From: Dehalococcoidia bacterium
GTDB taxonomy: Bacteria > Chloroflexota > Dehalococcoidia > UBA6926
Reading direction: 5' to 3'
DNA length: 64,000 nucleotides
Assembly: GCA_965224255.1 (NCBI GenBank)
Contig: CBDCYO010000001.1
Location: 12,456-76,455 of the forward strand
The first letter of the stretch is position 1. Each line of letters begins with the position of its first letter. Shown here in pieces: positions 7,742 to 38,587 of this stretch. The position numbers and the translations under genes are program-made. A model generated the notes under the pieces. That model was not told where the DNA came from. It searched no databases and saw nothing but the letters and a program-made list of their open reading frames with translations.

Positions 7742-8218
7742 TCAACGGGATACCACGGGCGGGGCGGGGTTGCTCAGGTCTATGCCGAATGCACTCGCCA
7801 CCTCTCTGATGCGGGACCATTTGGCGGTGGCGTAATCCGTGGCCTCGTACCGCTGTATCTGCTGTTCCTTCAGTCCCAGCCGGTCCGCCAACTCCTTTTG
7901 ACTGAGACCCTGGGAGATGCGTGCCTTGATGAGCAGGGCTGGTAGGTCGGCAACCACCCGCAGCCTGTCCATTCGGAACTCACCCGCCCTCACCGACTCG
8001 TACTCACGCAACTCGGCTTCCAGGTCGGACAGCTGACTGCTGACCGCATCCGCCTGTGCTTGCGCAATCATGGGATGCACTCCGTCCACCGCCTCGGGCC
8101 GTTCCCTGAGGCCCCGCAGGGTCTGAAGACCATATGGAGTCCCCTGCATTTGACAGCCGACGCACTCTGTGTTAAATGCACTGGCGATCTTGTCATGATC
8201 GGCACAGAATTCGAACAT
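7742..8218 (-). CDS. XRE-family HTH transcriptional regulator with Cys-containing N-terminal region
   Basis: C-terminal LIKARISQGLSQKELADRLGLKEQQIQRYE is a canonical HTH_XRE. N-terminal FCADH...ECVGC may bind metal. Confidence 0.6.
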   Translation of the reverse strand: MFEFCADHDKIASAFNTECVGCQMQGTPYGLQTLRGLRERPEAVDGVHPMIAQAQADAVSSQLSDLEAELREYESVRAGEFRMDRLRVVADLPALLIKARISQGLSQKELADRLGLKEQQIQRYEATDYATAKWSRIREVASAFGIDLSNPAPPVVSR

Positions 8219-9827: not shown

Positions 9828-10572
9828 TCAAAAGAGGTCAGCGTCGTGGCCGAGCCACTTCCTGATGAGGGCGTTCAGTGAGCCGTCATCTTTCATTTCG
9901 CTGATGGCCTGGTCCAGCTTGTCCTTTAACGGACCATCGTCTTCCCGAACGCCGACACCGGTACCGAAGTCGAGCTTCACCTCAGGGCCAACGATGGTCA
10001 GCCTTCCCTCGTATCCCACCATACTCTCATGAGCGAACTCCCGGTCCACCAGCGCCGCATCCACTTCGCCGCTCAACACGGCCTCAACAGGTTCTGAGGC
10101 CAGTTTGTACTCCAACAGCGTTACCCCTGTTTGGGACATAAGATAGCTGGCCTGGATCGTGGCCACCTGAGCGGCCACCTTGCCATTGGCCGCTTCGTCG
10201 CCGTCACCGGCCAGAGCTACGTAGACCGACCGGCCGGGCGGGATGTACGGCTGAGTGAAATCGATGACTTCATCCCGCTCATCGGTGATGCTCATCCCGG
10301 CCAGGATAGTGTCGTACTTGCCGTCCAGCAAGTTGGGGATGATGGTGTCCCATTCGTTGGTTACCCACGTGCACTCAAGATTGGCCCGCCGGCACAGCTC
10401 ATCACCCAACTCCCGCTCCAATCCGTCGACCTCACCATCATCGTTGATGAAATTGAAAGGGGGATAGGCCCCCTCGGTCCCCATACGGACAACATCGGGC
10501 GCACTGGAGCACGACAGAGAAACGGCAAGGAGTACCGCAAGCATTGCAACGAAGAAGATGGGTCTGATCATG
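9828..10572 (-). CDS. ABC transporter substrate-binding protein, family 3 (amino-acid type), lipoprotein
   Basis: MIRPIFFVAMLAVLLAVSLSCSS signal with lipobox. SBP_bac_3-like blocks (DTIIPNLLDGKYD, GMSITDERDEVIDFTQPY). Confidence 0.8.
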
Positions 10573-10960
10573 TTCGTTTTCCACCTTGTTGCCGTTCGCT
10601 GAAACGTCGTCCATTTCATGTGCAATTGGCCCGAGTGCACTTTGAGCTTACCGGAAAGGGCCGCTCTTTCCGCTAGGATTTTACGTCGTGGAAAGTTGCC
10701 GGTCGACCAGTGTCGGAACACGGAGCGGCGCCGTCCGGAAACCGGTCACCGGTGGCCAGAGACCGTAAGAGCGCCGGATTCTGCGCAACGACGAACATCG
10801 TCCGCCGCGGCAGTCGAAATACGTCACCGGCGCAAGACCTGGGCGACCGGCGATTGAGCACAACATCGGGTCCGGAGCTGGACACCGGGCCGGTTTTGAG
10901 GCGCACAATAGGCCGTTACGTAATGCGGGCCAACTTGTCCGCATTGACCCTTCGCTTGGT

Positions 10961-11086
10961 ATGGCAGAGTTCATAAGCGAAGTCTGCCGCCGTCAGCAAC
11001 TTTCCGGCTGGCCGTCCCGAAGGACGTGCGGACCCGACCTGAGCCGAGCCGCCGAAAATAGCAGACTTGTACCCAAAGTCTGCCAT
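10961..11086. repeat. hairpin elements H5 (10961-10990) and H6 (11058-11086) upstream of hsdM
   Basis: atggcagagttcataagcgaagtctgccgc and atagcagacttgtacccaaagtctgccat. Confidence 0.7.
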
Positions 11087-11254
11087 CCTTATACTCCCAA
11101 CGTGAGCTCAGATCATAACCAACTCCTTGTACCGAACCTACCGGAGCTGGAACAACTTGGGCATCCTGCACCGACTCGACTCCGCCTCGGTAGACCTTAT
11201 TGGGCTGGATTGGCCTGATGGCGGCGTTGGCAAACGAGCGGTAATTGGCTCTAG

Positions 11255-13420
11255 ATGGTGCCTGTGCCGGAGAAAAGACGGGCGTGCAGGAGAGGCAAAC
11301 ATCCATTGATTGCGGACCACTTTACAGGTATCGAGAAGTTTGAGGCGGATCTGTGGAAGGTCGCGGACAACCTGCGGGCCAATTCGAACCTAGCGTCAAA
11401 TGAATACTTCATGCCCATCCTGGGCGTGATCTTCCTGCGGCATGCGACGAACCGGTACGATGCGGCGGTGGCAGCGATAGATGCAGAAAAGGCCACAGGG
11501 GATATGCCTGACCGCCCGCTGGTCGAGGCCGACTTCGCTAGGCGAGGCTCCATGATGTTGCCCGAGGCTGCGCGCTACGACGCCCTCCTAGAAATCCCGA
11601 AGGACGGCAATCTCGGAGCGGCCGTGAATGCCGCCATGGAGATGATCGAAGACCACTACCCGCCCCTACGGGGACAGCTGCCGAAGGATTACGCACACTT
11701 CGACAATGACGTCCTAGAAGAAATGATGCGAACCTTCGATTCGGAGGCACTCCGCAAGGCCTCGGGCGACGTGCTCGGCCGCATCTATGAATATTTCCTT
11801 GCCGAATTCTCGAAGCTAGGCGCGCACGACAATGGCGAGTTCTTCACGCCACCCTCAATCGTCCAGACCATAGTCAATGTGATCGAGCCGGATCACGGCA
11901 CCGTCTTTGACCCCGCCGCCGGTTCTTGCGGCATGTTCGTGCAAACGGGCCATTTCATTGAGGACAAAGGCGAAGACACAATGGAAAGGGTCACGTTCTT
12001 CGGCCACGAGAAGAACGAAACGACCGCTAAGCTCGCCCAGATCAATCTCGCCGTACATGGGCTACAGGGCAACATAAGGGCCGGAAATGAAGCGATCACT
12101 TATTACAATGACCCCCATGAACTGGTAGGGCAGTGCGATTTCGTCATGGCCAATCCACCTTTCAATGTGGACGAGGTTGACGAGGAAAAGGTGAAGAGTG
12201 ACCCACGCCTACCGTTTGGTTTGCCCGGGGTGAACAATTCCAAGAAGGTGTCCAATGCCAATTTTCTTTGGATGCAATATTTCTATAGCTACCTCAACGA
12301 GAACGGCCGTGCTGGCGTCGTGATGTCGTCGCAGGCATCAAACGCAGGAGGAGATCAGGCAACCGTGCGGCGAAAACTGGTCGAGAGCGGTGCTGTGGAT
12401 GTGATGGTCGATATCCGCAACAAATTTTTCTATAGGAATGCCGTCCCATGCCAACTCTGGTTCTTTGACCGGTCGAAAGAGCGGGATGATAACCGCCGTG
12501 ACCAAGTCCTGATGCTCGACGCGCGCAACATCTATCGCAAGGTCACAACTCGGATCTTCGACTTCAGTCCCGAACAGCAGAAGAACATCACCGCCATCGT
12601 GTGGCTCTACCGGGGCCAGTCGGAACGGTTCCTCAACCTAGTTGAGAGGTACCTCAGGCAGGCCATCGACGAAGGACGAGCGACTACTACGATGCTCTCC
12701 AAGTTCCAGGGGAGTTTGGACAAGCTTAGCGGTCTGGCGGAACCCTTCGCAACAGAGAAGCGTGATCCCGATCCGCTGCTCGAAACTTGGACGGAACTCA
12801 TCTCCACGAAGGATACGCTGTCGGCAGACGTTGAGGTTTTCGTGACCGAGGTAGCGGCGCGGACCTTTGAATGGGAGCAACGCGAGGACGGTTCCACGCG
12901 TGGGAACGCTGAACTGCACGTCGCGCGTGAAAGCTTGCGCGAAATGGCGGGGCACTGTCAGGACTTGACCAAGCAGGTCGATCTTGCCACGAGGTTGTCT
13001 GGGAGGGCTGTCGAGATCGCGACGAAGGAACTCGACGCGCGTAAATCTGAACTCTGGACCAATAGGGATATCAACGCTACGCGCAGGGAGCTTGAGGATG
13101 TACGAGTTGCAACCGTCGAAGCGCTGCGTCGGGCGCGGCACTACGTTCGTGAGGCCGACTGGCTGCAGGAGCGTTTTCCGGATGCCGGCCTGCGTGATGT
13201 CGAGGGGTTAGTGAAGTTGGTGGATCTGAGCGACATCGAAGCGCTTGATTGGAGTCTCACTCCTAGCCGCTACGTAGGACTCGCCCCAGAGGAGATGGAC
13301 GAGGATTTCGTTTTTGAGGAAACGATGCGGGCAATCCACATCGAAATGAATGAGCTGAACGAGGAAGCAGTGGAACTGGCGGCGCGGATCGCTCGGAACT
13401 TTTTGGAGTTGGGGGTGTGA
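11255..13420 (+). CDS. hsdM: Type I restriction-modification system DNA methyltransferase subunit HsdM (N6-adenine)
   Basis: FTPPSIVQTIV, DPAAGSCGMF (motif I), CDFVMANPPFN (motif IV) and an N-terminal HsdM_N-like helix (FEADLWKVADNLRAN). Alternative TTG start at 11308 after AGGAGAGG. Confidence 0.92.
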   Translation: MVPVPEKRRACRRGKHPLIADHFTGIEKFEADLWKVADNLRANSNLASNEYFMPILGVIFLRHATNRYDAAVAAIDAEKATGDMPDRPLVEADFARRGSMMLPEAARYDALLEIPKDGNLGAAVNAAMEMIEDHYPPLRGQLPKDYAHFDNDVLEEMMRTFDSEALRKASGDVLGRIYEYFLAEFSKLGAHDNGEFFTPPSIVQTIVNVIEPDHGTVFDPAAGSCGMFVQTGHFIEDKGEDTMERVTFFGHEKNETTAKLAQINLAVHGLQGNIRAGNEAITYYNDPHELVGQCDFVMANPPFNVDEVDEEKVKSDPRLPFGLPGVNNSKKVSNANFLWMQYFYSYLNENGRAGVVMSSQASNAGGDQATVRRKLVESGAVDVMVDIRNKFFYRNAVPCQLWFFDRSKERDDNRRDQVLMLDARNIYRKVTTRIFDFSPEQQKNITAIVWLYRGQSERFLNLVERYLRQAIDEGRATTTMLSKFQGSLDKLSGLAEPFATEKRDPDPLLETWTELISTKDTLSADVEVFVTEVAARTFEWEQREDGSTRGNAELHVARESLREMAGHCQDLTKQVDLATRLSGRAVEIATKELDARKSELWTNRDINATRRELEDVRVATVEALRRARHYVREADWLQERFPDAGLRDVEGLVKLVDLSDIEALDWSLTPSRYVGLAPEEMDEDFVFEETMRAIHIEMNELNEEAVELAARIARNFLELGV

Positions 13421-30013: not shown

Positions 30014-31087
30014 ATGAGAGCACCATCAGGACAACAGGCAGTGCGGCTGGCCGAGGACAGGCTGGCTCAGATATTCAGCGCAATCGGCCAGGCTGATCAC
30101 TTCGACATCGAGCTGCACGCCAAAGACGGCGACGAACGCAGTCAATCGGATGCTGTCATCACCATTGCCGGCCGCAGCTTCGTGCTGGAATGCAAGAGTT
30201 CCGGTTCACTCGGCCCGGTAGCAATGGCAGTTAATCGACTGGCCCAAGTCCCGTCCAACTCCCCTGATCCGGTGATCCCGTTGCTGGCGGTCCCCCACAT
30301 GGGCGCGTCAGCACGGGCTTACTGTGAGCAGAACGGCGTGGCCTGGCTGGACCTCTCCGGCAACGGGAGAATCGTGGCGCCTGGGATGTTCTACCAAGAG
30401 GTGGGACACCCCAACCGATTCCCCCGGTCCGGCCGACCGGAAAGCGCCTTCGGTCCCAAGGGTTCCCGTATAACCAGGCAGCTTCTCAAGGATCCGGAAA
30501 CGCCGGTCCGTCAGCGCGACCTGGCTTCCAGCACCGGTTTGAACGAAGGCCACGTCAGCCGGATCGTCAACAAACTGGTGGATATGGATCTCGTGCAGCG
30601 CGGCGATGACGGCATCAGCGTTACTGACCAAAACCTTCTGCTTGACGCTTGGCGTGAGGAGTATCGCTTCGACCGGCATACCGTCATACGCGGGTATGTG
30701 GCGGCTAGGTCGGGCGACGCGTTGGCCCGTTCACTAGCTCAGAAACTGGACGAGTTCGAGATGTCTTATGCCGTAACCGGATTGCCAGCCGCCTGGTTGT
30801 GGACCCGGTACGCCGGGTTCCGGCTCGTCACCGCTTATCTCGCCGATTTCCCATCGGCTGGATTGATGACGGATCTGGGTTTTCGGGAAGAGCCACGCGG
30901 CGCCAACACGTGGCTGGTGATCCCCAACGACGAGGGGGTATTCCATGGAGCCAGCCAGGTAGACGGCGTACGATGCGTCCATCCGGTGCAGGCGTATCTG
31001 GACCTGAAGGACCATCCGGAGCGGTCACAGGAAGCTGCCGAAGAACTGAGGAGCCGGTTGCTCGCAGGAAGTCCCGTTGACCGCTAA
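30014..31087 (+). CDS. AbiEi-like Type IV TA antitoxin/regulator with an extra N-terminal PD-(D/E)xK-like domain
   Basis: Residues about 40-65 FDIELHAKDGDERSQSDAVITIAGRSFVLECKS (D...ExK). Central wHTH VRQRDLASSTGLNEGHVSRIVNKLVDMDLV. AbiEi-like C-terminal domain. Confidence 0.55.
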   Translation: MRAPSGQQAVRLAEDRLAQIFSAIGQADHFDIELHAKDGDERSQSDAVITIAGRSFVLECKSSGSLGPVAMAVNRLAQVPSNSPDPVIPLLAVPHMGASARAYCEQNGVAWLDLSGNGRIVAPGMFYQEVGHPNRFPRSGRPESAFGPKGSRITRQLLKDPETPVRQRDLASSTGLNEGHVSRIVNKLVDMDLVQRGDDGISVTDQNLLLDAWREEYRFDRHTVIRGYVAARSGDALARSLAQKLDEFEMSYAVTGLPAAWLWTRYAGFRLVTAYLADFPSAGLMTDLGFREEPRGANTWLVIPNDEGVFHGASQVDGVRCVHPVQAYLDLKDHPERSQEAAEELRSRLLAGSPVDR

Positions 31088-31919
31088 ACCGACCACATGG
31101 GACGGATATTCCAACGACCAGCTGGACATCGTCACCCGCGCCTGTCTCTACGTTTTCACCAAGCTGGGTGATCTGTGCGACGATGTTGTGGTGGTAGGCG
31201 GCTTGGTGCCTTACCTCCTGGTGGACCAGGATGACCCGCCGACATTGCTGGGGACCCACTCCGGCACCATGGACCTCGACCTGGGGCTGGCGCTCGCGAT
31301 CCTGGATGAACAGCGATATCAGGACTTGAGCGCACGGTTGCGCAGCGCGGGATTTTCTCCAGACGTGAACAGCGCCGGCAACACAACCCTGCAACGCTGG
31401 GTCACCAACTCGGGACCGCACGTAACCATAGACTTCCTGATTCCTCCGCAGGCTGCGAACGGCCAGCCAGGCAGACTTTTCCACATCGAAAACGACTTTG
31501 CCGCGATCATCACTGAGGGACTTGGCCTGGCCTTTCGCGACCGGCGATCGGTGACGTTATCGGGCTACACGCTTGCAGACGAGCGCGCCACCAGAGAGAT
31601 TCCGGTGTGCGGTCCGGGCGCTTTCACCGTGCTCAAGGCTCTGGCCTTTCGGAACCGGGGCGAAAACAAGGACGCCTACGACCTGCATTACGTGCTGAGC
31701 GGTCTGGGCATCAACGAAGTCGCCCACTGCCTGCGGTCGCTCTTGCCAGATGCCCGGGTCAAGAAAACGTTGACCATCATCGGGAACGAGTTCACCGTGC
31801 GCGACGCCACGGGACCGAGGCGGGTGGCTCAGTTCCTGACCAACGGTCCGGACGATGATATTCAGGCGGACGTCGTCGGCAATGCGGTTGCGCTGCTAAA
31901 CGCGATGGGAATGACTTAA
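31077..31919 (+). CDS. AbiEii/DUF1814-family nucleotidyltransferase toxin
   Basis: TTG start after AGGAAG RBS, overlapping upstream stop. VVVGGLVPYLL...GTMDLDL (GG...D.D) and KDAYDLHYVL signature blocks. Confidence 0.75.
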   Translation: MTAKPTTWDGYSNDQLDIVTRACLYVFTKLGDLCDDVVVVGGLVPYLLVDQDDPPTLLGTHSGTMDLDLGLALAILDEQRYQDLSARLRSAGFSPDVNSAGNTTLQRWVTNSGPHVTIDFLIPPQAANGQPGRLFHIENDFAAIITEGLGLAFRDRRSVTLSGYTLADERATREIPVCGPGAFTVLKALAFRNRGENKDAYDLHYVLSGLGINEVAHCLRSLLPDARVKKTLTIIGNEFTVRDATGPRRVAQFLTNGPDDDIQADVVGNAVALLNAMGMT

Positions 31920-32031
31920 GACTGCGGACCGCCTTCAGGCGGCCGTAGAGTTTCGACGAAGCAACATACCGCTTCGAAGACAAAGGTTTGCCAAGACCCG
32001 CCCGCAAGTCAAGAATGGAGAAGGGACAGCC

Positions 32032-33801
32032 GTGCTTCAGATTGCATCCGGCAAATTGTTCCGGAAGAAACCCGGCCAGCGCAATGAGTTGCGAGGCGTA
32101 CTGTACACGAACCTGCGGGTGTACGACAGAGTGATTGAGACTTCCGCAGGCCGTTTACTGTCCACGAGCAACCTGCACGACTCGAAAACGTTGGTGTACG
32201 AGTTAGCCGAACTCATCGAGGATGATCCCGGCCCAGGAGTGATCGCATCACACGGTATTGATCCGTACCTGAGCGACTTTGCAACCGTCGTATCCTTCGT
32301 CCTCAACGTGACCTGCACGCCGGACCACGACCTAACCCTTAGGTTGCTCAGCGGACGCCCCAGTCCGTCAGTTCAGTTCCCTCCTAACAAACTGGTCGCT
32401 CGGGCGTTCGATGACATGGTCTGGTGCCAGCCTCGGGACGAAATCCAGCTGTTCGAGATGGTTGCTCAACTCATCAGCCTGAAGCGCGAGAGTTTCCTGG
32501 CGGCCATGCGGTCCATACGCTCCTACGTCACCGGATTGCATAGGCTCGCCGATGACCATGAGCTGGCTTACACACTGCTGGTAGTAGCCATTGAGTCGCT
32601 GGCGCCGGAATTCGACGACTCCAATCCACAGTGGTCAGACTACGACCAGCGGAAGCGTCTTGCCATCGATAAAGCCCTGGTCGGTGCGGATGAGGGTTTG
32701 GCTACGCGAGTCAGAGAAGCTTTGCTGGCAACCGAGCACGTTGCGTTGGGCCGGCGCTTCCGTGAGTTCGCTCTGGAACACTTGGAGCCGTCCTACTTCC
32801 GGAAGGAAGCCCAAGGTTTGGTCAATCCCGTGGGATATTCCGACCTGGAAGTCGCGTTGCGGCAGGCATACAACTTGCGCTCCGACTATGTTCACGAACT
32901 AGCAGAACTACCCGCGATACTGAAGCTGCCGGGTTTCGGGGACACGGCTCCACTGGGTCGCCAGGCAGTGCTGACATTTCAAGGACTAGCTCGTCTGGCT
33001 CGCCATGTGATCGCGACATTCATCCAGAGACAACCCAAGGTTCACCGGGAAGCGTACGATTACCGGCTCGAACTGCCCGGCGTGGCAAGAGTCGAGCTGG
33101 AACCTCGATACTGGGTCGGTCGCGCTGACAACCTGCACAACAACGCGGGACGTCGACGCTTGGAAGGTTTCCTGAAACAGGCCACGGCGTGTCTGCTCCA
33201 AGGAGAAGGAGCTTCCGTTACTAACCTGAGGGACGTGCTGTTGGAAGTCGAGAGAATGCTCGCCCAGATGAGCGCTCACCAACGGCGGCCGTTCATCGCG
33301 CTCTACATCCTATTCAACACGATGGCATTGGGAAACGAGAAGATGGATCAATTTGAGGAGCTCACGAAGCACTACTGGGAGGAGTTTGCCCAGCCAGCGA
33401 TAGAGTCCATGCTGACGTTTCTGGCGTTGGGTATCGACCCCGAGTGGTCTCTCACCGAGCATCGCGAGGTCCACGACACTTACTTCCGGGAGAAGCACCA
33501 CAAGAACGGCCTGAGAGTTCCTCCCGCTCTGGAAGCAGGGCTCTGCCTGACTCTCGCCGAGCATTACCGCCTGGCAGGCGACGTTGTGCAGGCACGCGCA
33601 CTCATCACATCAGCTGCGGAGAATCATCCTGGCCACGCTCCTCTGCTCGACCTTGAGCAGAACTTCGACCCTGCCCAGGAGATCAACTGGATGAATACGG
33701 TCAGACCACCTCGGGTTGATGAAGATGACAAAGACCCTGCGGGAGGAACCGGCGACCGAGATGCGAAAGGGGCAACATCGGAGGTGTTCGGAAAACCATA
33801 A
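32032..33801 (+). CDS. large hypothetical protein with HEPN-like Rx4H motif
   Basis: GTG start after GGAGAAGGGA RBS. ALRQAYNLRSDYVHELAEL contains R-x4-H. No other recognisable domain. Confidence 0.5.
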   Translation: MLQIASGKLFRKKPGQRNELRGVLYTNLRVYDRVIETSAGRLLSTSNLHDSKTLVYELAELIEDDPGPGVIASHGIDPYLSDFATVVSFVLNVTCTPDHDLTLRLLSGRPSPSVQFPPNKLVARAFDDMVWCQPRDEIQLFEMVAQLISLKRESFLAAMRSIRSYVTGLHRLADDHELAYTLLVVAIESLAPEFDDSNPQWSDYDQRKRLAIDKALVGADEGLATRVREALLATEHVALGRRFREFALEHLEPSYFRKEAQGLVNPVGYSDLEVALRQAYNLRSDYVHELAELPAILKLPGFGDTAPLGRQAVLTFQGLARLARHVIATFIQRQPKVHREAYDYRLELPGVARVELEPRYWVGRADNLHNNAGRRRLEGFLKQATACLLQGEGASVTNLRDVLLEVERMLAQMSAHQRRPFIALYILFNTMALGNEKMDQFEELTKHYWEEFAQPAIESMLTFLALGIDPEWSLTEHREVHDTYFREKHHKNGLRVPPALEAGLCLTLAEHYRLAGDVVQARALITSAAENHPGHAPLLDLEQNFDPAQEINWMNTVRPPRVDEDDKDPAGGTGDRDAKGATSEVFGKP

Positions 33802-33815
33802 CCATTACCCAGCGC

Positions 33816-35336
33816 ATGGGATTTCCAGATGAAAAACAATGGTCAATAAGCCAGGAGGACAATTTGAACGAACCGCGTGTACCGGAAGCTATTGATCTGC
33901 AGCAGAAATGGCGACTCGGCGAGCAGTTGGGAGCCGGGGGATTTGCCGACGTCTATCGGGCCCGGTCGGGGAACGGAACATCGGCAGTGGTCAAGCTCGT
34001 CCGCAAGCTGCCCGGTACCCATCGCGAACTCCTGTTTGTGGATTTGGACGACGTGCCCAATGTCGTGCCCATCATCGACTGGGGTGAACACGACGACTAT
34101 TGGGTGCTGGTGATGCCGGAAGCAGAGAAGTCGCTCCGCGACCGCCTCATTGAAGTCGAAGGTCGGCTTGATACGTCCGAAGCCGTCCCGATACTCATTG
34201 ACGTCGCCCAGGCGCTTGTAGCCATGGAAAGCCGCGTCGTGCACCGGGACATCAAGCCGGAGAACATCCTCCTGCTGGATGGCAGCTGGCGCCTTGCGGA
34301 CTTCGGTATCGCCCGTTACGCCGAGGCCACCACCGCGCCGGACACGCTGAAGTACTCGATGTCCCGCGCCTACGCCGCGCCTGAGCAGTGGCGAGGCGAG
34401 AGGGCCAGCAGCGCTACGGACGTGTACGCTTTGGGGGTTGTGGCATATGAACTCCTGACGGGACAGCTTCCGTTCCAGGGAGTCGACCTGCGGCAACAGC
34501 ACTTGGAAGAGACCCCAGAGACCATCTCAGGCATTCCCGACAGGCTGCGATCCCTGGTGAACGAATGCTTGTACAAGGGCCCCGAAGCACGCCCACGGCC
34601 TCAGAATCTTCTGGCGCGGTTGCAGGGAAGTATGCAAGCGGCCTCCGCGGCAGCATCTCGCCTGCAACAGGCCAACGCTCTGGCCGTACAGAGAAAAGCG
34701 GAGGATGAGCGTCAACAGTCTGCAGCCCAAGTCGAAGCGGAGCGGCGGAGAACGCTTCGGGCCGCAGCCGAACAGTCGTTGGAAACCACTCTGGCCCTGC
34801 TCCATCAGCAGATTGCGGACAACGCGCCAGCAGTCCGTGTAGCAGGTTCCCCTCCCCGAAGCTGGGCTTTGAACGACGCCACTTTGCGCATGGGCACGAT
34901 CACGCTAGCTGTTCCGAAACCCGACGAACGTATGCAATTGCCGTTCGACGTAGTGGCCCATACATCGATCAGCCTCTCCGTTCCCCGAGACCGATACGGG
35001 TACACAGGCCGTTCCCACTCGTTGTGGTATTGCGACGCCCAGCACGAGGGAGGGTTCCGGTGGTACGAAACGGCCTTCATGATCACCTTTGGTGGGTCCG
35101 AAAGGCGGGGCTTTGCACCCTTCGATATGCACCCGGGCGATCCCGACGCAATGCTAGCCCTGTCGCCGGTGATGCATACTCACCAGGTGGCTTGGCCATT
35201 CACTCCGATTGACCAGGGGGACGAGGACGCTTTCATCGAACAGTGGATGGGGTGGATCGGCGAGGCCGCACAAAGCCAGATGCGCCGTCCGAGCACGCTA
35301 CCGGAAGTAAACCCCCAAGGTTCGTGGCGACGATGA
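33816..35336 (+). CDS. Hanks-type Ser/Thr protein kinase with ~230-aa C-terminal domain of unknown function
   Basis: LGAGGFADVY...AVVK, HRDIKPENILL, DFG, APE motifs. Alternative TTG start 33876 after GGAGGA. Confidence 0.85.
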   Translation: MGFPDEKQWSISQEDNLNEPRVPEAIDLQQKWRLGEQLGAGGFADVYRARSGNGTSAVVKLVRKLPGTHRELLFVDLDDVPNVVPIIDWGEHDDYWVLVMPEAEKSLRDRLIEVEGRLDTSEAVPILIDVAQALVAMESRVVHRDIKPENILLLDGSWRLADFGIARYAEATTAPDTLKYSMSRAYAAPEQWRGERASSATDVYALGVVAYELLTGQLPFQGVDLRQQHLEETPETISGIPDRLRSLVNECLYKGPEARPRPQNLLARLQGSMQAASAAASRLQQANALAVQRKAEDERQQSAAQVEAERRRTLRAAAEQSLETTLALLHQQIADNAPAVRVAGSPPRSWALNDATLRMGTITLAVPKPDERMQLPFDVVAHTSISLSVPRDRYGYTGRSHSLWYCDAQHEGGFRWYETAFMITFGGSERRGFAPFDMHPGDPDAMLALSPVMHTHQVAWPFTPIDQGDEDAFIEQWMGWIGEAAQSQMRRPSTLPEVNPQGSWRR

Positions 35337-35609
35337 TGTTGCAGGAGCGCATGACCGTTTACTGTAAGGACCCCAAGGCAAAGCGGGAAACAATACCCGG
35401 ACGTCCCTTTGGCCTCACCGGCCCGATCAGCGGGGGACCGTCGCCATCGCCGCCGTAAACCACGGTGATGAGACGGCGCGTAGCGAATGCTCGGGCGCGA
35501 TGGTCTGGCCCGACGCCAGTTCCACGCGGACGCCAGTTCCATGCTGACAAGCTGACAACGCGTGCAACGTCCGGCCAGCGGGGTGAGCGCCGGCCGGACG
35601 TGCGGGGTG

Positions 35610-36314
35610 CTACTGGACCCGAACGTTCAGCGACGGATTGTCGCCATCGCCGGGTGCAGTGATGGTGAAGTGGAGGTGGATATCGATGTGGACATCATCT
35701 CCGTCCCGGACCGTCACCGCTCCGCCGCTCACCGTCAGGGTCGCCGCCTTCGGCGGCTGGGCCGGTCTGGCGGCAGCGGGCCGCCGGTTCAGCTTCTCCA
35801 CCTCCTCGGAGATCAACCGCTTGCCCAGCTGCTTCTGCACCTGGTCCCCTTCGGGCAGGTCGGCAAGACTGGCCACCAGGTCGTCCAGACCCGACAGAAG
35901 CTTGACCTTGCTGCCCCGCATCTCCTCCAGGATGTCCGGGTCTGGGGTCATGTCGGTGAACACCATCACGGGGATGACGTAGCAGCCGAAGTCCAGGTCC
36001 TGGGACAGCCGGTCCTTGATGGACATGGCCGCATCCCAGGCCTCTTCCCGGACGTTGCCCATCGGCGTGACGGCGCCGTCCTCGGCGTGGCGGTACCATC
36101 CACCGTCTCGCACGGACCATTGGTCGTGCAGGAAGGTGAGAGCGTAGCGGCCGTTGCCCTCCAGCAGGACCAGGCAGTCGGGGGCGGGGTCGCCGGGGGC
36201 CACCAGGGGCCACCACAGCGCCTGGCCGGACCGGTCGCTCTGCTCAAACTGCTGGCAGATCTCGATCTCCTTCAGGGTCATGGGGCGGTTGTCATCGGTT
36301 TTCACGACTTTCAT
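35610..36314 (-). CDS. NERD-like domain protein, degenerate (lacks the conserved K), paralog of 38869-39585
   Basis: DCLVLLEGNGRYALTFLH aligns with DYAVWIEGLGRFALQVKG of the paralog; YVIPVMVFTDMTPDPDI vs YVIPVLMFPDMEPDLAI. Confidence 0.55.
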   Translation of the reverse strand: MKVVKTDDNRPMTLKEIEICQQFEQSDRSGQALWWPLVAPGDPAPDCLVLLEGNGRYALTFLHDQWSVRDGGWYRHAEDGAVTPMGNVREEAWDAAMSIKDRLSQDLDFGCYVIPVMVFTDMTPDPDILEEMRGSKVKLLSGLDDLVASLADLPEGDQVQKQLGKRLISEEVEKLNRRPAAARPAQPPKAATLTVSGGAVTVRDGDDVHIDIHLHFTITAPGDGDNPSLNVRVQ

Positions 36315-36324
36315 GTTTAATCAC

Positions 36325-36350: not shown

Positions 36351-36564
36351 GGAAGGTTGCGCCGGGTCCGCAGAAACGGAAGCGGGCCGACCCGGGAAGG
36401 TCCCGGATCGGCCCGCGGCAGCTGCGGCCAGGCTTTGGATGGTGAATGATGGTGAATTGGGGGCAGAATGTCGCCCCCCTGCGGGTAGCGCTCGCCCAGC
36501 GGTCGGGGGCGGCCCCCGGGCCGTGGCATTGCCAGCGGTTTCATGACGCATGATGATTTTCACT

Positions 36565-36850: not shown

Positions 36851-38587
36851 TCAGGACGGCACTTGCCCCAAATGCACGTCCACGCCCATCAGGCGCAGCA
36901 TCACCCGCCCCGTCACCGGCGCGGCCTCCCGCGTGGAGCCCTTCTCCCTGGGCTCGAACCGCTGGCGGGCCAGCGCCTCAATGTCCCTCTGGCACAGTTC
37001 TCTCCAACGGCGGGCCTCATCCCAGATGTCGCCAAAACGCTGGTGCACCGGACCACCGGCCGTGAGCACCAGCAGCCGCTCGGCTCGGGAGAAGGCCACG
37101 TAATGCTGGCGCATGTGGTCGAAGGCCGCAATGAGCCGGGCGGGCTCTGCGTCAGACCGGAGATAGTACGGCCCCAACGACCTGCCCACCGGATCCACGT
37201 TGGGATTGTGTAAATCAAGAGACCCCACGATCACCACCGGCCACTGCCTTCCCTTGGACTGGTGAATGGTCGTCACGGTCACCGCTCCTTGGGAGCGTCT
37301 CCGGCCTCGTTCCCCGCGACCGGAGCCAGCCGGCACGCAGCGCGCGGGAATGCCCGCATCATTCAGGGCGTCCAGATAGGGTCCGGACACATCATCCTGT
37401 ACGCTGTGCAACAGCAACGCCACCTGGTGATAACCCTCAATCACTCGGCGGCTTTTCAGAAACCGCAGCAGATCAGCCAGCTGCCTTCCCTCGTCGTCGG
37501 GGTCGCGCCCCTCGACGGCGATCACCGCCGGGTAATCGTCGTACCCGCACGGGTCGTGGGGAACTATGGTCTTGGCATGGCGGAAGGGCGCGCCTTCGGG
37601 ATCGGGGTTGGACCAGTCCGCCGACCACATCCACCCGTCATACGCCCTGACGATGTCGGGGTGGCTGCGGTAGTTGACGGTGAGCTCCACCACCCGGCAG
37701 TCGTGGAAGCGCTCGCCGAACCCGAGAATATTGCGCACCGTGGCGCCGCGGAAACGGTACAGGGACTGGTCCTCGTCGCCGACCACGCACAGGTTGCCGT
37801 GCGCTGCGGACAGCCGCGTCAGGATGCGTTCCTGCACGTGGCTGGTGTCCTGACACTCATCACACATCAGGTACCGTATGCCACCGGAGATTGCATCGGC
37901 GACGTCATCGTCATCCAGCAGCAGGTCTGCCCAGGCCTGCAGGTGGGCGAAGTCGGCGGCGTTCTCATCCAGCAGCAGGCGCGCGTAGCGCCGGTAGCAG
38001 CGGCCCACGGCGGCAATGAAGGAACTGCGGGAACGGGTCAGGTTCCGGGGATTGATCACCTCATCGCAGATCCGCTCGAAGTACTTGAGCGCGCCCTTCA
38101 CCACCGCCGGGGGACGTCGCCAGCCCCGGCCCTCCAGATCCAACATGTCGGGGCCGAAAACGTCGTCGAACCGCCGATGCAGCAGGTTCGCCTGCTGATC
38201 GTTGTCCAGCAGGCGGAAACCGCGCCTCAAACCCACCCGCTCGGGGTGTTCGGCCAGGAGCCGTCCGCACAGGCTGTGGATGGTGCACACGCGCGTGCGG
38301 CCGGTGCTGACTCCGTAATCCGCCGCGCTGGCCACGGCGTCAAACCTCTGGCGCAGCTCACCGGCCGCGTCCGCGTTGTAGGTGCACAGCAGCAACTCCT
38401 CCGGCCGGGCCAGCCCCCGCAATAGGATGTTGGCTCCCCGGAGCGCCAGCGTCAGGGTCTTGCCGGCGCCGGGACCGGCGACGCCCAGCGTGGGGCCGTC
38501 CAGGCTGCTGATCAGCTCCAGCTGTCCGGCGTCCAGCTGCGGGTAGAGGGACAAAATGACGGGCGCTACGCCCGCGGTGGTTTTCAT
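36851..38587 (-). CDS. UvrD/Rep-family SF1 DNA helicase (compact, 578 aa)
   Basis: GPGAGKT (I), TYNADAAGEL (Ia), CDECQDTS (II), VVGDEDQSLYRFRGA (III), NYRSHPDIV (IV), TIHQSKGRQWPVVIV (V), YVAFSRAERLLVLT (VI). Confidence 0.9.
   Translation of the reverse strand: MKTTAGVAPVILSLYPQLDAGQLELISSLDGPTLGVAGPGAGKTLTLALRGANILLRGLARPEELLLCTYNADAAGELRQRFDAVASAADYGVSTGRTRVCTIHSLCGRLLAEHPERVGLRRGFRLLDNDQQANLLHRRFDDVFGPDMLDLEGRGWRRPPAVVKGALKYFERICDEVINPRNLTRSRSSFIAAVGRCYRRYARLLLDENAADFAHLQAWADLLLDDDDVADAISGGIRYLMCDECQDTSHVQERILTRLSAAHGNLCVVGDEDQSLYRFRGATVRNILGFGERFHDCRVVELTVNYRSHPDIVRAYDGWMWSADWSNPDPEGAPFRHAKTIVPHDPCGYDDYPAVIAVEGRDPDDEGRQLADLLRFLKSRRVIEGYHQVALLLHSVQDDVSGPYLDALNDAGIPARCVPAGSGRGERGRRRSQGAVTVTTIHQSKGRQWPVVIVGSLDLHNPNVDPVGRSLGPYYLRSDAEPARLIAAFDHMRQHYVAFSRAERLLVLTAGGPVHQRFGDIWDEARRWRELCQRDIEALARQRFEPREKGSTREAAPVTGRVMLRLMGVDVHLGQVPS

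Follow-up and report, generated by a model that had tools for sequence, protein, structure and literature searches.

Genes A and K, which lie next to each other on the forward strand of the window (the whole 64,000-nucleotide stretch of DNA analysed here), are interpreted with moderate confidence as two independent single-gene defence modules standing side by side in one mobile island, and not as a two-gene system. The families of the two genes are almost never linked, and for this reason the split Ire1/RNase L logic suggested in the preliminary description falls; we propose that the idea of a kinase-nuclease system be dropped here. Gene A is put forward instead as the candidate founder of a new abortive-infection family, HEPN-like and acting as a single gene, for which Pfam, NCBIfam, PADLOC and PHROGs have no entry. 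The features that make the family useful are its five-residue invariant site, its regular occurrence in defence islands and the frequency with which it is inactivated.

Gene A and its invariant site

Gene A (32032..33801, + strand) begins with a GTG codon and encodes a 589-aa protein with three predicted regions. The start is supported by the N-terminus (M)LQIASGK, which agrees with the N-termini of relatives. Ahead of the GTG, a consensus scan indicated a promoter-like site, TTGCCA-17-AAGAAT (31988..32026, + strand), and the purine-rich stretch GGAGAAGGGA (32017-32026, + strand) may serve for ribosome binding; both are pattern matches only.

The relatives of A number more than 468, every one annotated as hypothetical, and clustering of the family at 50% identity gives at least 1212 representatives, most of them about 570 aa long. 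Searches of Pfam, NCBIfam, PADLOC and PHROGs gave no family match for A, and a sequence-profile search of the PDB gave no match either. In a profile search of 1.84 billion representatives, the best 150 matches were exclusively full-length members of the A family, with no bridge to a named family. Members occur in Chloroflexota, Alpha- and Gammaproteobacteria, Myxococcota, Actinomycetota, Bacillota and one methanogen contig, and A-family genes are carried by plasmids of Acinetobacter baumannii, Ralstonia, Bradyrhizobium and Bacillus thuringiensis. The A family is large, unnamed and horizontally mobile.

The AlphaFold2 (AF2) model of full-length A (pLDDT 85.6) divides the protein into an N-terminal mixed beta/alpha region, a central helical domain and a C-terminal helical repeat. 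The first of these, residues 1-126 (32032..32409, + strand), is unassigned and is predicted to contain strands at 16-26, 34-37, 40-44 and 53-62 and helices at 77-91 and 99-106; the motifs MLQIxSGK, NELRG and YE are conserved there among relatives. The central domain, residues 127-345 (32410..33066, + strand), has a predicted HEPN-like topology and was also modelled alone (pLDDT 90, pTM 0.81). Helices H1 (152-173) and H2 (176-188) are followed by a helical insert (189-268), H3 (269-289), a beta hairpin and H4 (316-333). The last region, residues ~360-560 (33109..33711, + strand), is predicted as an alpha-helical, TPR-like repeat domain with helices from 370 to 557, and may serve as a sensor or an interaction module. 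The TPR_14 model matched 27 of 53 family members (best E 4.7e-5), while the protein of the window scored 14.5 bits, under the 23.5 cutoff; TPR proteins are also among the best Foldseek matches of full-length A in the PDB, all of them non-significant.

The string LRSDYVHEL, which the preliminary description had offered as a candidate HEPN Rx4H motif, corresponds to residues 282-290 (nt 32875-32901) and is genuine. Its core, R283-S-D-Y-V-H288 (32878..32895, + strand), has the form R-S-x3-H and stands at the C-terminal end of the predicted helix H3. R283 and H288 are present in 225/225 members, which makes this Rx4H motif the unvarying centre of a large family. Across the 225 full-length relatives, which range from 25 to 98% identity, only E188, Y280, R283, S284 and H288 are 100% invariant. 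There are four Rx4H strings in A and the one from R283 to H288 alone is conserved; the invariance of R283, S284 and H288 in all 225 sequences takes the motif far beyond a chance match.

The surroundings of the motif were compared with the HEPN active-site layout described by Anantharaman et al. 2013 (PMC3710099), which agrees with the order of motif, glutamate and helices in A. In the models the motif stands at the end of its helix and is followed by a loop and then by the helix at 316-333, and Glu188 (codon 32593..32595, + strand) ends the preceding helix hairpin, the helical insert lying between. At the level of predicted secondary structure the order H1, H2, insert, H3 with the motif, and H4 fits that of HEPN domains. 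The conserved acidic residue of HEPN helix 2 is present in the sequence as Glu188, at the end of H2 (Glu in 225/225 members). The residue directly after the HEPN arginine is polar, typically Asn, Asp or His (PMC3710099); in A it is the invariant Ser284, which is polar but outside the typical three.

Fold and family searches were less favourable to the HEPN assignment: the motif is not isolated and its layout fits, but no significant Foldseek match and no Pfam HEPN model accompanies it. With full-length and domain models of A, Foldseek against the PDB gave nothing below E 0.3, the Sacsin HEPN domain (E 1.2) and Csm6' (E 3.3) appearing in the lists at noise level only, and the central domain had no significant match in BFVD. 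The HEPN models of Pfam and PADLOC did not match A, and hhalign of the A-family profile against the AbiV protein of a related plasmid locus showed no relation. A lone HEPN_AbiU2 match (E 0.027, one of 53 members) was rejected as noise, being absent on a rescan of ten divergent members.

These results leave a smaller, though appreciable, chance that A is not an HEPN RNase, and that the invariant Glu, Tyr, Arg-Ser and His form some other catalytic or ligand-binding site within a helical fold. Such a protein would not be tied to any HEPN family by profile or structure searches, as is the case here; the serine after the arginine and the invariant Tyr280 are atypical of HEPN, and chance topological resemblances are frequent among helical bundles. 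However, the conserved set equals the HEPN site in composition, spacing and secondary-structure positions, and HEPN families are mutually undetectable by sequence. From the motif and the predicted topology, we infer that A is HEPN-like.

Among known systems, A is closest in character to HEPN defence RNases such as ApeA, AbiU2, AbiV, RnlA/LsoA and those of the C6orf70/DUF4209 type. It has in common with them the Rx4H at a helix end, the upstream acidic residue and the helical insert. Like them it is found in defence islands, as one large protein in which further domains lie on the N- and C-terminal sides. The C6orf70 family is listed as an HEPN-TPR fusion in Table 1 of PMC3710099. A differs from these RNases in lacking a profile or Foldseek match, in the Ser after the Arg and in the additional invariant Tyr280.

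Gene K and its C-terminal domain

Gene K encodes a Hanks-type Ser/Thr kinase, with a longest ORF of 506 aa from an ATG (33816..35336, + strand). The likely start is the TTG at 33864, with AGGAGG upstream at 33853-33858; it yields a 490-aa protein, which matches the length of relatives such as P0121 and P0124. Both ORFs are placed as in the preliminary description, but the spacing it gave as 15 bp is 14 nt between the longest ORFs and 62 nt from the likely TTG start.

The kinase assignment was confirmed. Residues 34-267 (33915..34616, + strand) form the catalytic domain (Pkinase E 3.5e-37), in which the Gly loop (39-47), Lys60 (VAIK-type), Glu71, HRD (143-145), DFG (162-164) and APE (188-190) are all intact. 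The uncharacterised C-terminal domain of about 230 aa, noticed earlier, is also real: residues ~275-506 are conserved across a large kinase family and had no match among the Pfam, NCBIfam and PADLOC models. They comprise a charged linker (~275-335; 34638..34820, + strand), delimited from the sequence and the family alignment and presumed helical from its composition, and a family-specific domain (336-506; 34821..35336, + strand) with 42 invariant columns among 11 diverse members. The latter contains the motifs GRSHSLWYCDA, FRWYETAF, VAWPF and IDQGDE; its invariant columns include no conserved motif of the Rx4H type, and a PDB sequence-profile search with it gave no match. In every locus examined this domain occurs only downstream of a kinase domain or of a broken kinase remnant. 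Its existence as a kinase-free protein was considered and rejected, the short matches examined being split or degraded kinase genes.

The PADLOC mad6 and PD-T4-6 kinase models matched K with E values between 1e-53 and 1e-45, the matches being confined to the kinase domain. For the PD-T4-6 models (E 3.6e-45 and below, residues ~28-320) PADLOC sets no curated cutoff, and a match to them would be expected of any Hanks kinase. The NCBIfam equivalogs remained far under their cutoffs (MAD6, 142.6 against 460 bits; PglW, 47 against 990), and no MADS or BREX partner genes were present among the neighbouring ORFs scanned. K resembles the PD-T4-6, Stk2, MADS Mad6 and BREX PglW kinases in its complete Hanks domain and in being a stand-alone gene among restriction-modification and defence genes, and differs in that the PD-T4-6 and Mad6 models cover its kinase domain only, leaving a C-terminal domain of about 170 aa without a model. 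As judged from its sequence, K belongs with the PD-T4-6-like Hanks kinases, to which it adds a C-terminal domain specific to its own family. This conserved domain, to which no family is assigned, may be a phage sensor.

Linkage of the two genes across genomes

The co-occurrence of A and K in other genomes, which the preliminary description had put forward as a test of its proposal, came out against pairing. Of the 31 genome loci in which A is near-full and 1.6 kb or more of downstream DNA is available, one has K downstream of A, and it belongs to the window's own lineage. Conversely, A was found in 0/80 metagenome loci of the K family, more than 30 of which have over 2 kb of upstream sequence. 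Relatives of K occur without A at 84% (L130, L131), 66% (L128) and 64% (L129) identity. Several loci have opposite-strand genes on both sides of A, for example L012, L014, L030 and the A. baumannii plasmid locus L125.

Same-strand adjacency of A and K was observed in six close loci (the window, L015, L118, L120, L121 and L122), with spacings in this lineage from a 4-bp overlap to 62 nt. All six present one syntenic island, AbiEi-AbiEii-A-K, plus UvrD where the contig reaches, and so they represent a single evolutionary event. Three further relatives have lost K or keep only a remnant of it; two of them, L119 (no K) and L123 (a decayed K remnant next to A), still have an intact A. A consensus scan revealed no terminator-like site between A and K, and this together with their tight packing indicates that the two genes are probably co-transcribed in the window's lineage, where a local functional link may therefore exist.

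The adjacency, the absence of a terminator-like site and the K remnant placed right after A in L123, a locus without AbiE, would also be expected if A and K were a true two-gene system in the Dehalococcoidia-type lineage, the kinase sensing infection and, by phosphorylation, switching the HEPN-like nuclease on (or holding it off) in trans, in the manner of Ire1/RNase L. We regard this as improbable, since the six loci count as one event, A stays intact where K has been lost, a K of 84% identity stands without A, the two families lack each other in nearly all the loci counted above, and the genes are unfused with the nuclease-like gene first in order. A slimmer chance is given to a recent recruitment, in one island lineage, of the kinase and the HEPN-like protein into a working pair in which phosphorylation would gate the RNase in trans.

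The likeness to Ire1 and RNase L is that a protein kinase and an HEPN-like motif are genetically close in the window. The KEN domain of those proteins is circularly permuted, fused C-terminal to the kinase, and eukaryotic (PMC3710099). None of these traits applies here, A and K being separate genes with the nuclease-like one first. The split logic is therefore not supported, given that the adjacency is confined to one island lineage and A is kept where K is lost. If the pair were true, prokaryotes would have a split version of the Ire1/RNase L principle, put together recently from defence genes that elsewhere act on their own.

Defence-island setting and proposed action

The pair A and K had been described as lying between AbiE and a NERD/helicase cluster in the defence island. 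The AbiE side holds: an AbiEi-like gene (30014-31087, + strand; AbiEi_2 E 7.5e-6, above the Pfam cutoff) and, directly upstream of A, an AbiEii-like gene (31077-31919, + strand; AbiEii E 4.2e-4, 20.8 against a cutoff of 22.5 bits) precede A. Downstream of K, the ORF scan found a UvrD-type helicase (36851-38587, - strand), but no NERD domain was present in the window ORFs scanned. The defence-island setting itself is supported.

AbiEi-AbiEii is syntenic with A, which it directly precedes with the same orientation in the window, L015, L118-L122 and L001, and a second, unrelated AbiEii type of about 340 aa lies upstream of A in L009, L035 and L007. Both arrangements could be read as an AbiE-type module to which A has been added as an accessory third gene. 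The HEPN-like protein would then be under the control of the AbiEii nucleotidyltransferase, an analogue of MNT-HEPN pairs, where the transferase modifies the HEPN toxin. Nucleotidyltransferase-HEPN association is a recurrent theme (PMC3710099, PMC7641770), which counts for this possibility. We nevertheless consider it very doubtful. In most loci no AbiE was detected upstream of A, as judged by iterative HMM searching for the genome loci and by annotation for L123, L124 and the plasmid loci, and other upstream genes of about 280 aa are unrelated to AbiEii. Where the second AbiEii type is present, either A or AbiEii is degraded, and AbiE is common in such islands, which makes a chance adjacency plausible. 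AbiE, a type IV toxin-antitoxin system, directly precedes A in syntenic order in the close lineage, and is a separate two-gene module.

Beyond AbiE, the neighbours of A include RES, type I, IIG and ISP restriction-modification, NACHT, CBASS plus AbiV, Cas9, and a gene pair of a UvrD-helicase and an AAA-ATPase. In Erythrobacter (L022, L025), NACHT, A and a 505-aa gene form a block, a candidate for a genuine multi-gene system with A as a component. The ~280-aa genes that often precede A are not all AbiEii-like: one is a DUF6602 protein, another an addiction-module antidote, and others are unrelated proteins. The neighbours of K are variable between loci and comprise C5 and N6 methylases, MmeI, DndB, NotI, DUF4238 and OLD-TOPRIM. 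Both families are found among restriction-modification, toxin-antitoxin, CBASS, Cas9 and NACHT genes.

For A and K as independent modules, we infer the following roles. The central domain of A would carry a metal-independent RNase site of the HEPN type, made up of Glu188 and Y280-x2-R283-S284-x3-H288, and the TPR-like repeat would keep the enzyme inactive until a phage cue is sensed. Once activated, probably through the dimerisation known from other HEPN RNases, A would cut cellular or phage RNA, and the infection would be aborted. In K, the C-terminal domain may act as the sensor of the trigger and the kinase domain may phosphorylate host or phage proteins.

The A and K families are both often inactivated. 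At 10 of 36 A loci the gene is damaged by frameshifts, stop codons or insertions of 0.9-1.4 kb, or survives as a short remnant, and we count this frequency toward a cost or toxicity of A. The insertions within A at L019 and L027 encode DDE and rve transposases.

Genes A and K in the window and in related genomes

ORF translation recovered both genes at the positions reported in the preliminary description. Gene A (32032-33801, plus strand) starts with GTG and encodes a 589-aa protein with a candidate HEPN motif; its N-terminus, (M)LQIASGK, is conserved as the N-terminus of its relatives. Gene K, a Hanks-type Ser/Thr kinase gene, has its longest ORF (506 aa) at 33816-35336 on the plus strand; this ORF begins 14 nt past the A stop codon, at an ATG (33816) that lacks a ribosome-binding site. 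A consensus AGGAGG (33853-33858, plus strand) lies 5 nt ahead of a TTG at 33864, from which K would have 490 aa, as have relatives including P0121 and P0124; the A-K gap is therefore probably 62 nt. The adjacency of the two genes stands, and the 15-bp spacing first given for them is corrected to 14 nt between the longest ORFs.

An AbiEi-like gene and a weak AbiEii-like gene were found upstream of A (30014-31919), in agreement with the AbiE originally placed there. Downstream of K, on the opposite strand, there is a UvrD-type helicase; the neighbouring cluster had been described as NERD/helicase, and no NERD domain was found in the window ORFs scanned. A terminator-like hairpin with a 16-bp stem (13 G-C pairs) is located downstream of the minus-strand UvrD gene (36382-36416, minus strand). 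The coding strand of the ORF beside it (35562-36320) is ambiguous, being a plus-strand ORF of 252 aa in the window and called as a minus-strand gene of 313 aa in locus L120.

The two genes had been interpreted as a split version of the kinase plus HEPN (KEN) logic of Ire1/RNase L, to be refuted if the Rx4H match proved isolated and the two genes did not co-occur in other genomes. The scan with A, taking one genome per species, gave 37 loci from Chloroflexota, Alpha- and Gammaproteobacteria, Myxococcota and Actinomycetota, together with one Binatia MAG and one Methanobacterium contig. In 31 of them A was near-full with at least 1.6 kb downstream, and K, by its N- or C-terminal part, was present in a single one (L015, a Dehalococcoidia MAG). 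Clustering of the neighbours across the A loci revealed no conserved partner gene, and in several loci, including an A. baumannii plasmid, A has opposite-strand genes on both sides. Conversely, no A relative occurred in 80 metagenome loci retrieved with the K C-terminal domain alone, more than 30 of which have over 2 kb upstream, nor beside K relatives of 84% (L130, L131), 66% (L128) and 64% (L129) identity. A and K are nearly always apart, which largely refutes the pair. A two-gene system of A and K is not conserved, so the split Ire1/RNase L logic lacks a tested defining feature; the window also contains no kinase-KEN protein.

The contigs that carry close relatives of A (68-84% identity) were identified. 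The order AbiEi-AbiEii-A-K is present in six loci (the window, L015, L118, L120, L121 and L122), followed, where the contig is long enough, by the UvrD helicase that the window has and by a gene of 238 aa; L120 and L122 have an integrase ahead of the island. Identity to the window across the island relatives is 85-95% for K, 68-84% for A, 71-88% for AbiEii and 69-73% for AbiEi. These six loci are one syntenic island and represent one evolutionary event. Loss of K within this lineage takes three forms: L119 keeps AbiE and an intact A, with IS21 genes at the position of K; in L001 A is frameshifted and K absent; and in L123, which lacks AbiE, an intact A adjoins a type ISP restriction-modification gene. 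Directly after A, L123 carries a decayed K remnant of 59 residues (7797-7958), corresponding to K residues 37-95 at 61% identity, with the Gly loop destroyed. In L124, A (63% identity) is alone in a mobile element.

Within the island, A-K spacing ranges from a 4-bp overlap (L121) to the 62 nt of the window, and no terminator-like site was found between the genes. The tight spacing and this result suggest that A and K are co-transcribed in this lineage, so a local functional link is possible, and nothing requires it. A working kinase-nuclease pair in this lineage-specific operon is considered very improbable. The best reading is that A and K are two autonomous single-gene modules.

Motif and predicted topology of the A protein

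Pfam, NCBIfam, PADLOC and PHROGs models do not match A. It has more than 468 relatives among the 90% clusters, every one labelled hypothetical. At 50% identity there are 1212 representatives (E up to 0.001), and the best 150 mostly have about 570 aa and align end to end. Among 225 full-length members, 25-98% identical to the window protein, only E188, Y280, R283, S284 and H288 are invariant (225/225), and R152, W201, G318 and W361 are kept in at least 98%. A has four Rx4H strings, of which only that at 283-288, the LRSDYVHEL motif noticed previously, is conserved. By this alignment, the motif is not a chance match.

The AF2 model, which is confident (pLDDT 85.6 for the full length, 90.0 for residues 127-345), presents an N-terminal beta/alpha region (1-126), a central helical region (127-345) and a C-terminal helical repeat (~360-560). 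In the central domain are predicted a helix at 152-173, a helix ending in Glu188 (176-188), a helical insert (189-268), a helix with R283 and H288 at its end (269-289), a loop with a beta hairpin and a last helix (316-333). HEPN domains are four-helix bundles in which helices 2 and 3 are often separated by inserts; helix 2 carries a conserved acidic residue, and the Arg is followed by a polar one, mostly Asn, Asp or His (Anantharaman et al. 2013, PMC3710099). In conserved residues and predicted order of elements A fits this description, except that its polar residue is Ser.

The profile and structure searches gave no link to HEPN. Pfam gave nothing for A at E up to 1, PADLOC nothing consistent, and the PDB sequence-profile search nothing. 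HEPN_AbiU2 matched one of the 53 members scanned (E 0.027), an isolated match whose member was not located on rescan. Foldseek against PDB gave no match below E 0.3 for the full-length or 127-345 model, with Sacsin HEPN (E 1.2) and Csm6' (E 3.3) amid chance helical bundles, and the BFVD structure search gave nothing usable. We therefore refer to A as "HEPN-like by motif and topology", with membership left unproven. TPR_14 matches in 27 of the 53 members (best E 4.7e-5) show the C-terminal region to be TPR-like. A HEPN-TPR fusion is listed for the C6orf70 family (PMC3710099), and A resembles both this fusion and HEPN abortive-infection proteins in motif, topology and setting. Membership of a named family was not detectable.

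We infer that A would be a HEPN-like RNase effector, restrained by the TPR-like tail until a trigger releases it. As a candidate for a new HEPN-like defence gene, the A family is clean and testable.

The kinase and its C-terminal domain

K, first described as a Hanks-type kinase, is a complete one: Pkinase matches residues 34-267 (E 3.5e-37), and the Gly loop, Lys60, Glu71, HRD143-145, DFG162-164 and APE188-190 are all present. The PADLOC PD-T4-6 model also matches the kinase domain (E about 1e-45), and the likeness to PD-T4-6-type kinases is confined to this catalytic domain. Kinase and C-terminal domain together form a large family of their own (7562 matches), the best 120 matches being mostly full-length and 56-95% identical. 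The C-terminal domain is real, with 42 columns invariant across 11 diverse members. K would be a PD-T4-6-like kinase with this conserved domain as its putative sensor. A and K are new families of known kinds, and their novelty is modest.

In Micromonospora sp. WMMD712 (L132, 3038-4531), one ORF encodes the kinase domain (289 aa) and the ORF next to it the family-specific C-terminal domain (176 aa); the gene is either split or a pseudogene. The two ORFs are flanked by two DUF4238 genes, with an OLD-TOPRIM gene near. In L130 and L131 (2957-6497 and 10677-11497), the kinase 84% identical to K lies beside a DndB-family gene; these contigs also encode an 800-aa protein with a kinase domain and an ADP-ribosylglycohydrolase domain.

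Defence neighbourhoods and gene decay

The defence-island setting was borne out for both families, which are set amid defence and toxin-antitoxin genes. Neighbours of A include AbiE (two unrelated types), RES, DUF6602, IrrE, an addiction-module antidote, type I S subunit, type IIG and type ISP restriction-modification genes, a 2191-aa NACHT protein, CBASS plus AbiV, Cas9 and a UvrD-helicase plus AAA-ATPase gene pair. Those of K include C5 and N6 methylases, MmeI, an SNF2-NOV_C helicase, DndB, NotI, DUF4238 and OLD-TOPRIM.

Ten of 36 A loci (about 28%) are inactivated: two are frameshifted, one has in-frame stop codons, four have insertions of 0.9-1.4 kb and three are short remnants. The inactivated genes lie near 10001-13100 in each of L001, L009, L019, L021, L027, L029 and L036, and the remnants (28-125 residues) are in L034, L035 and L037. 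The insertions of L019 and L027, the two scanned, encode DDE and rve transposases. This frequency suggests that A is costly or toxic. Split or degraded K genes were also found, and the decay in both families suits costly or toxic defence genes.

Two unrelated types of AbiEii, each with AbiEi, immediately precede A on its strand: one of ~280 aa in the window lineage (window 30014-31919) and one of ~340 aa in other Dehalococcoidia (L009 8327-9944, L035 8324-9929, L007 9462-9860). This arrangement recalls nucleotidyltransferase-HEPN pairings; AbiE was not detected upstream of A in most loci. In two Erythrobacter genomes (L022 and L025, 3442-13310), the NACHT-domain gene and the start of A share 17 bp, and a 505-aa gene without Pfam match begins 4 bp past A, which may be a true three-gene operon. 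In L003 and L019 (6517-9899), genes of ~820 aa and 278 aa precede A; the latter has no Pfam match, and in L003 it and the longest A ORF have 4 bp in common.

Plasmids of A. baumannii, Ralstonia, Bradyrhizobium, Nocardia, Bacillus thuringiensis and Paenibacillus carry relatives of A as well. A relative with 37% identity and 95% coverage (H16) is at 9849-11525 of MT835554.1 from human faeces, viral by its record label only ('Bacteriophage sp.'). On the Bradyrhizobium plasmid pBsp2S1b (L127), the A-family gene is located between a TrlF-like ATPase and the CBASS plus AbiV cluster; on A. baumannii pABA-2f10 (L125, WP_000939241.1), it adjoins the UvrD-helicase plus AAA-ATPase pair. Both are from cultured isolates, strains convenient for experiments.
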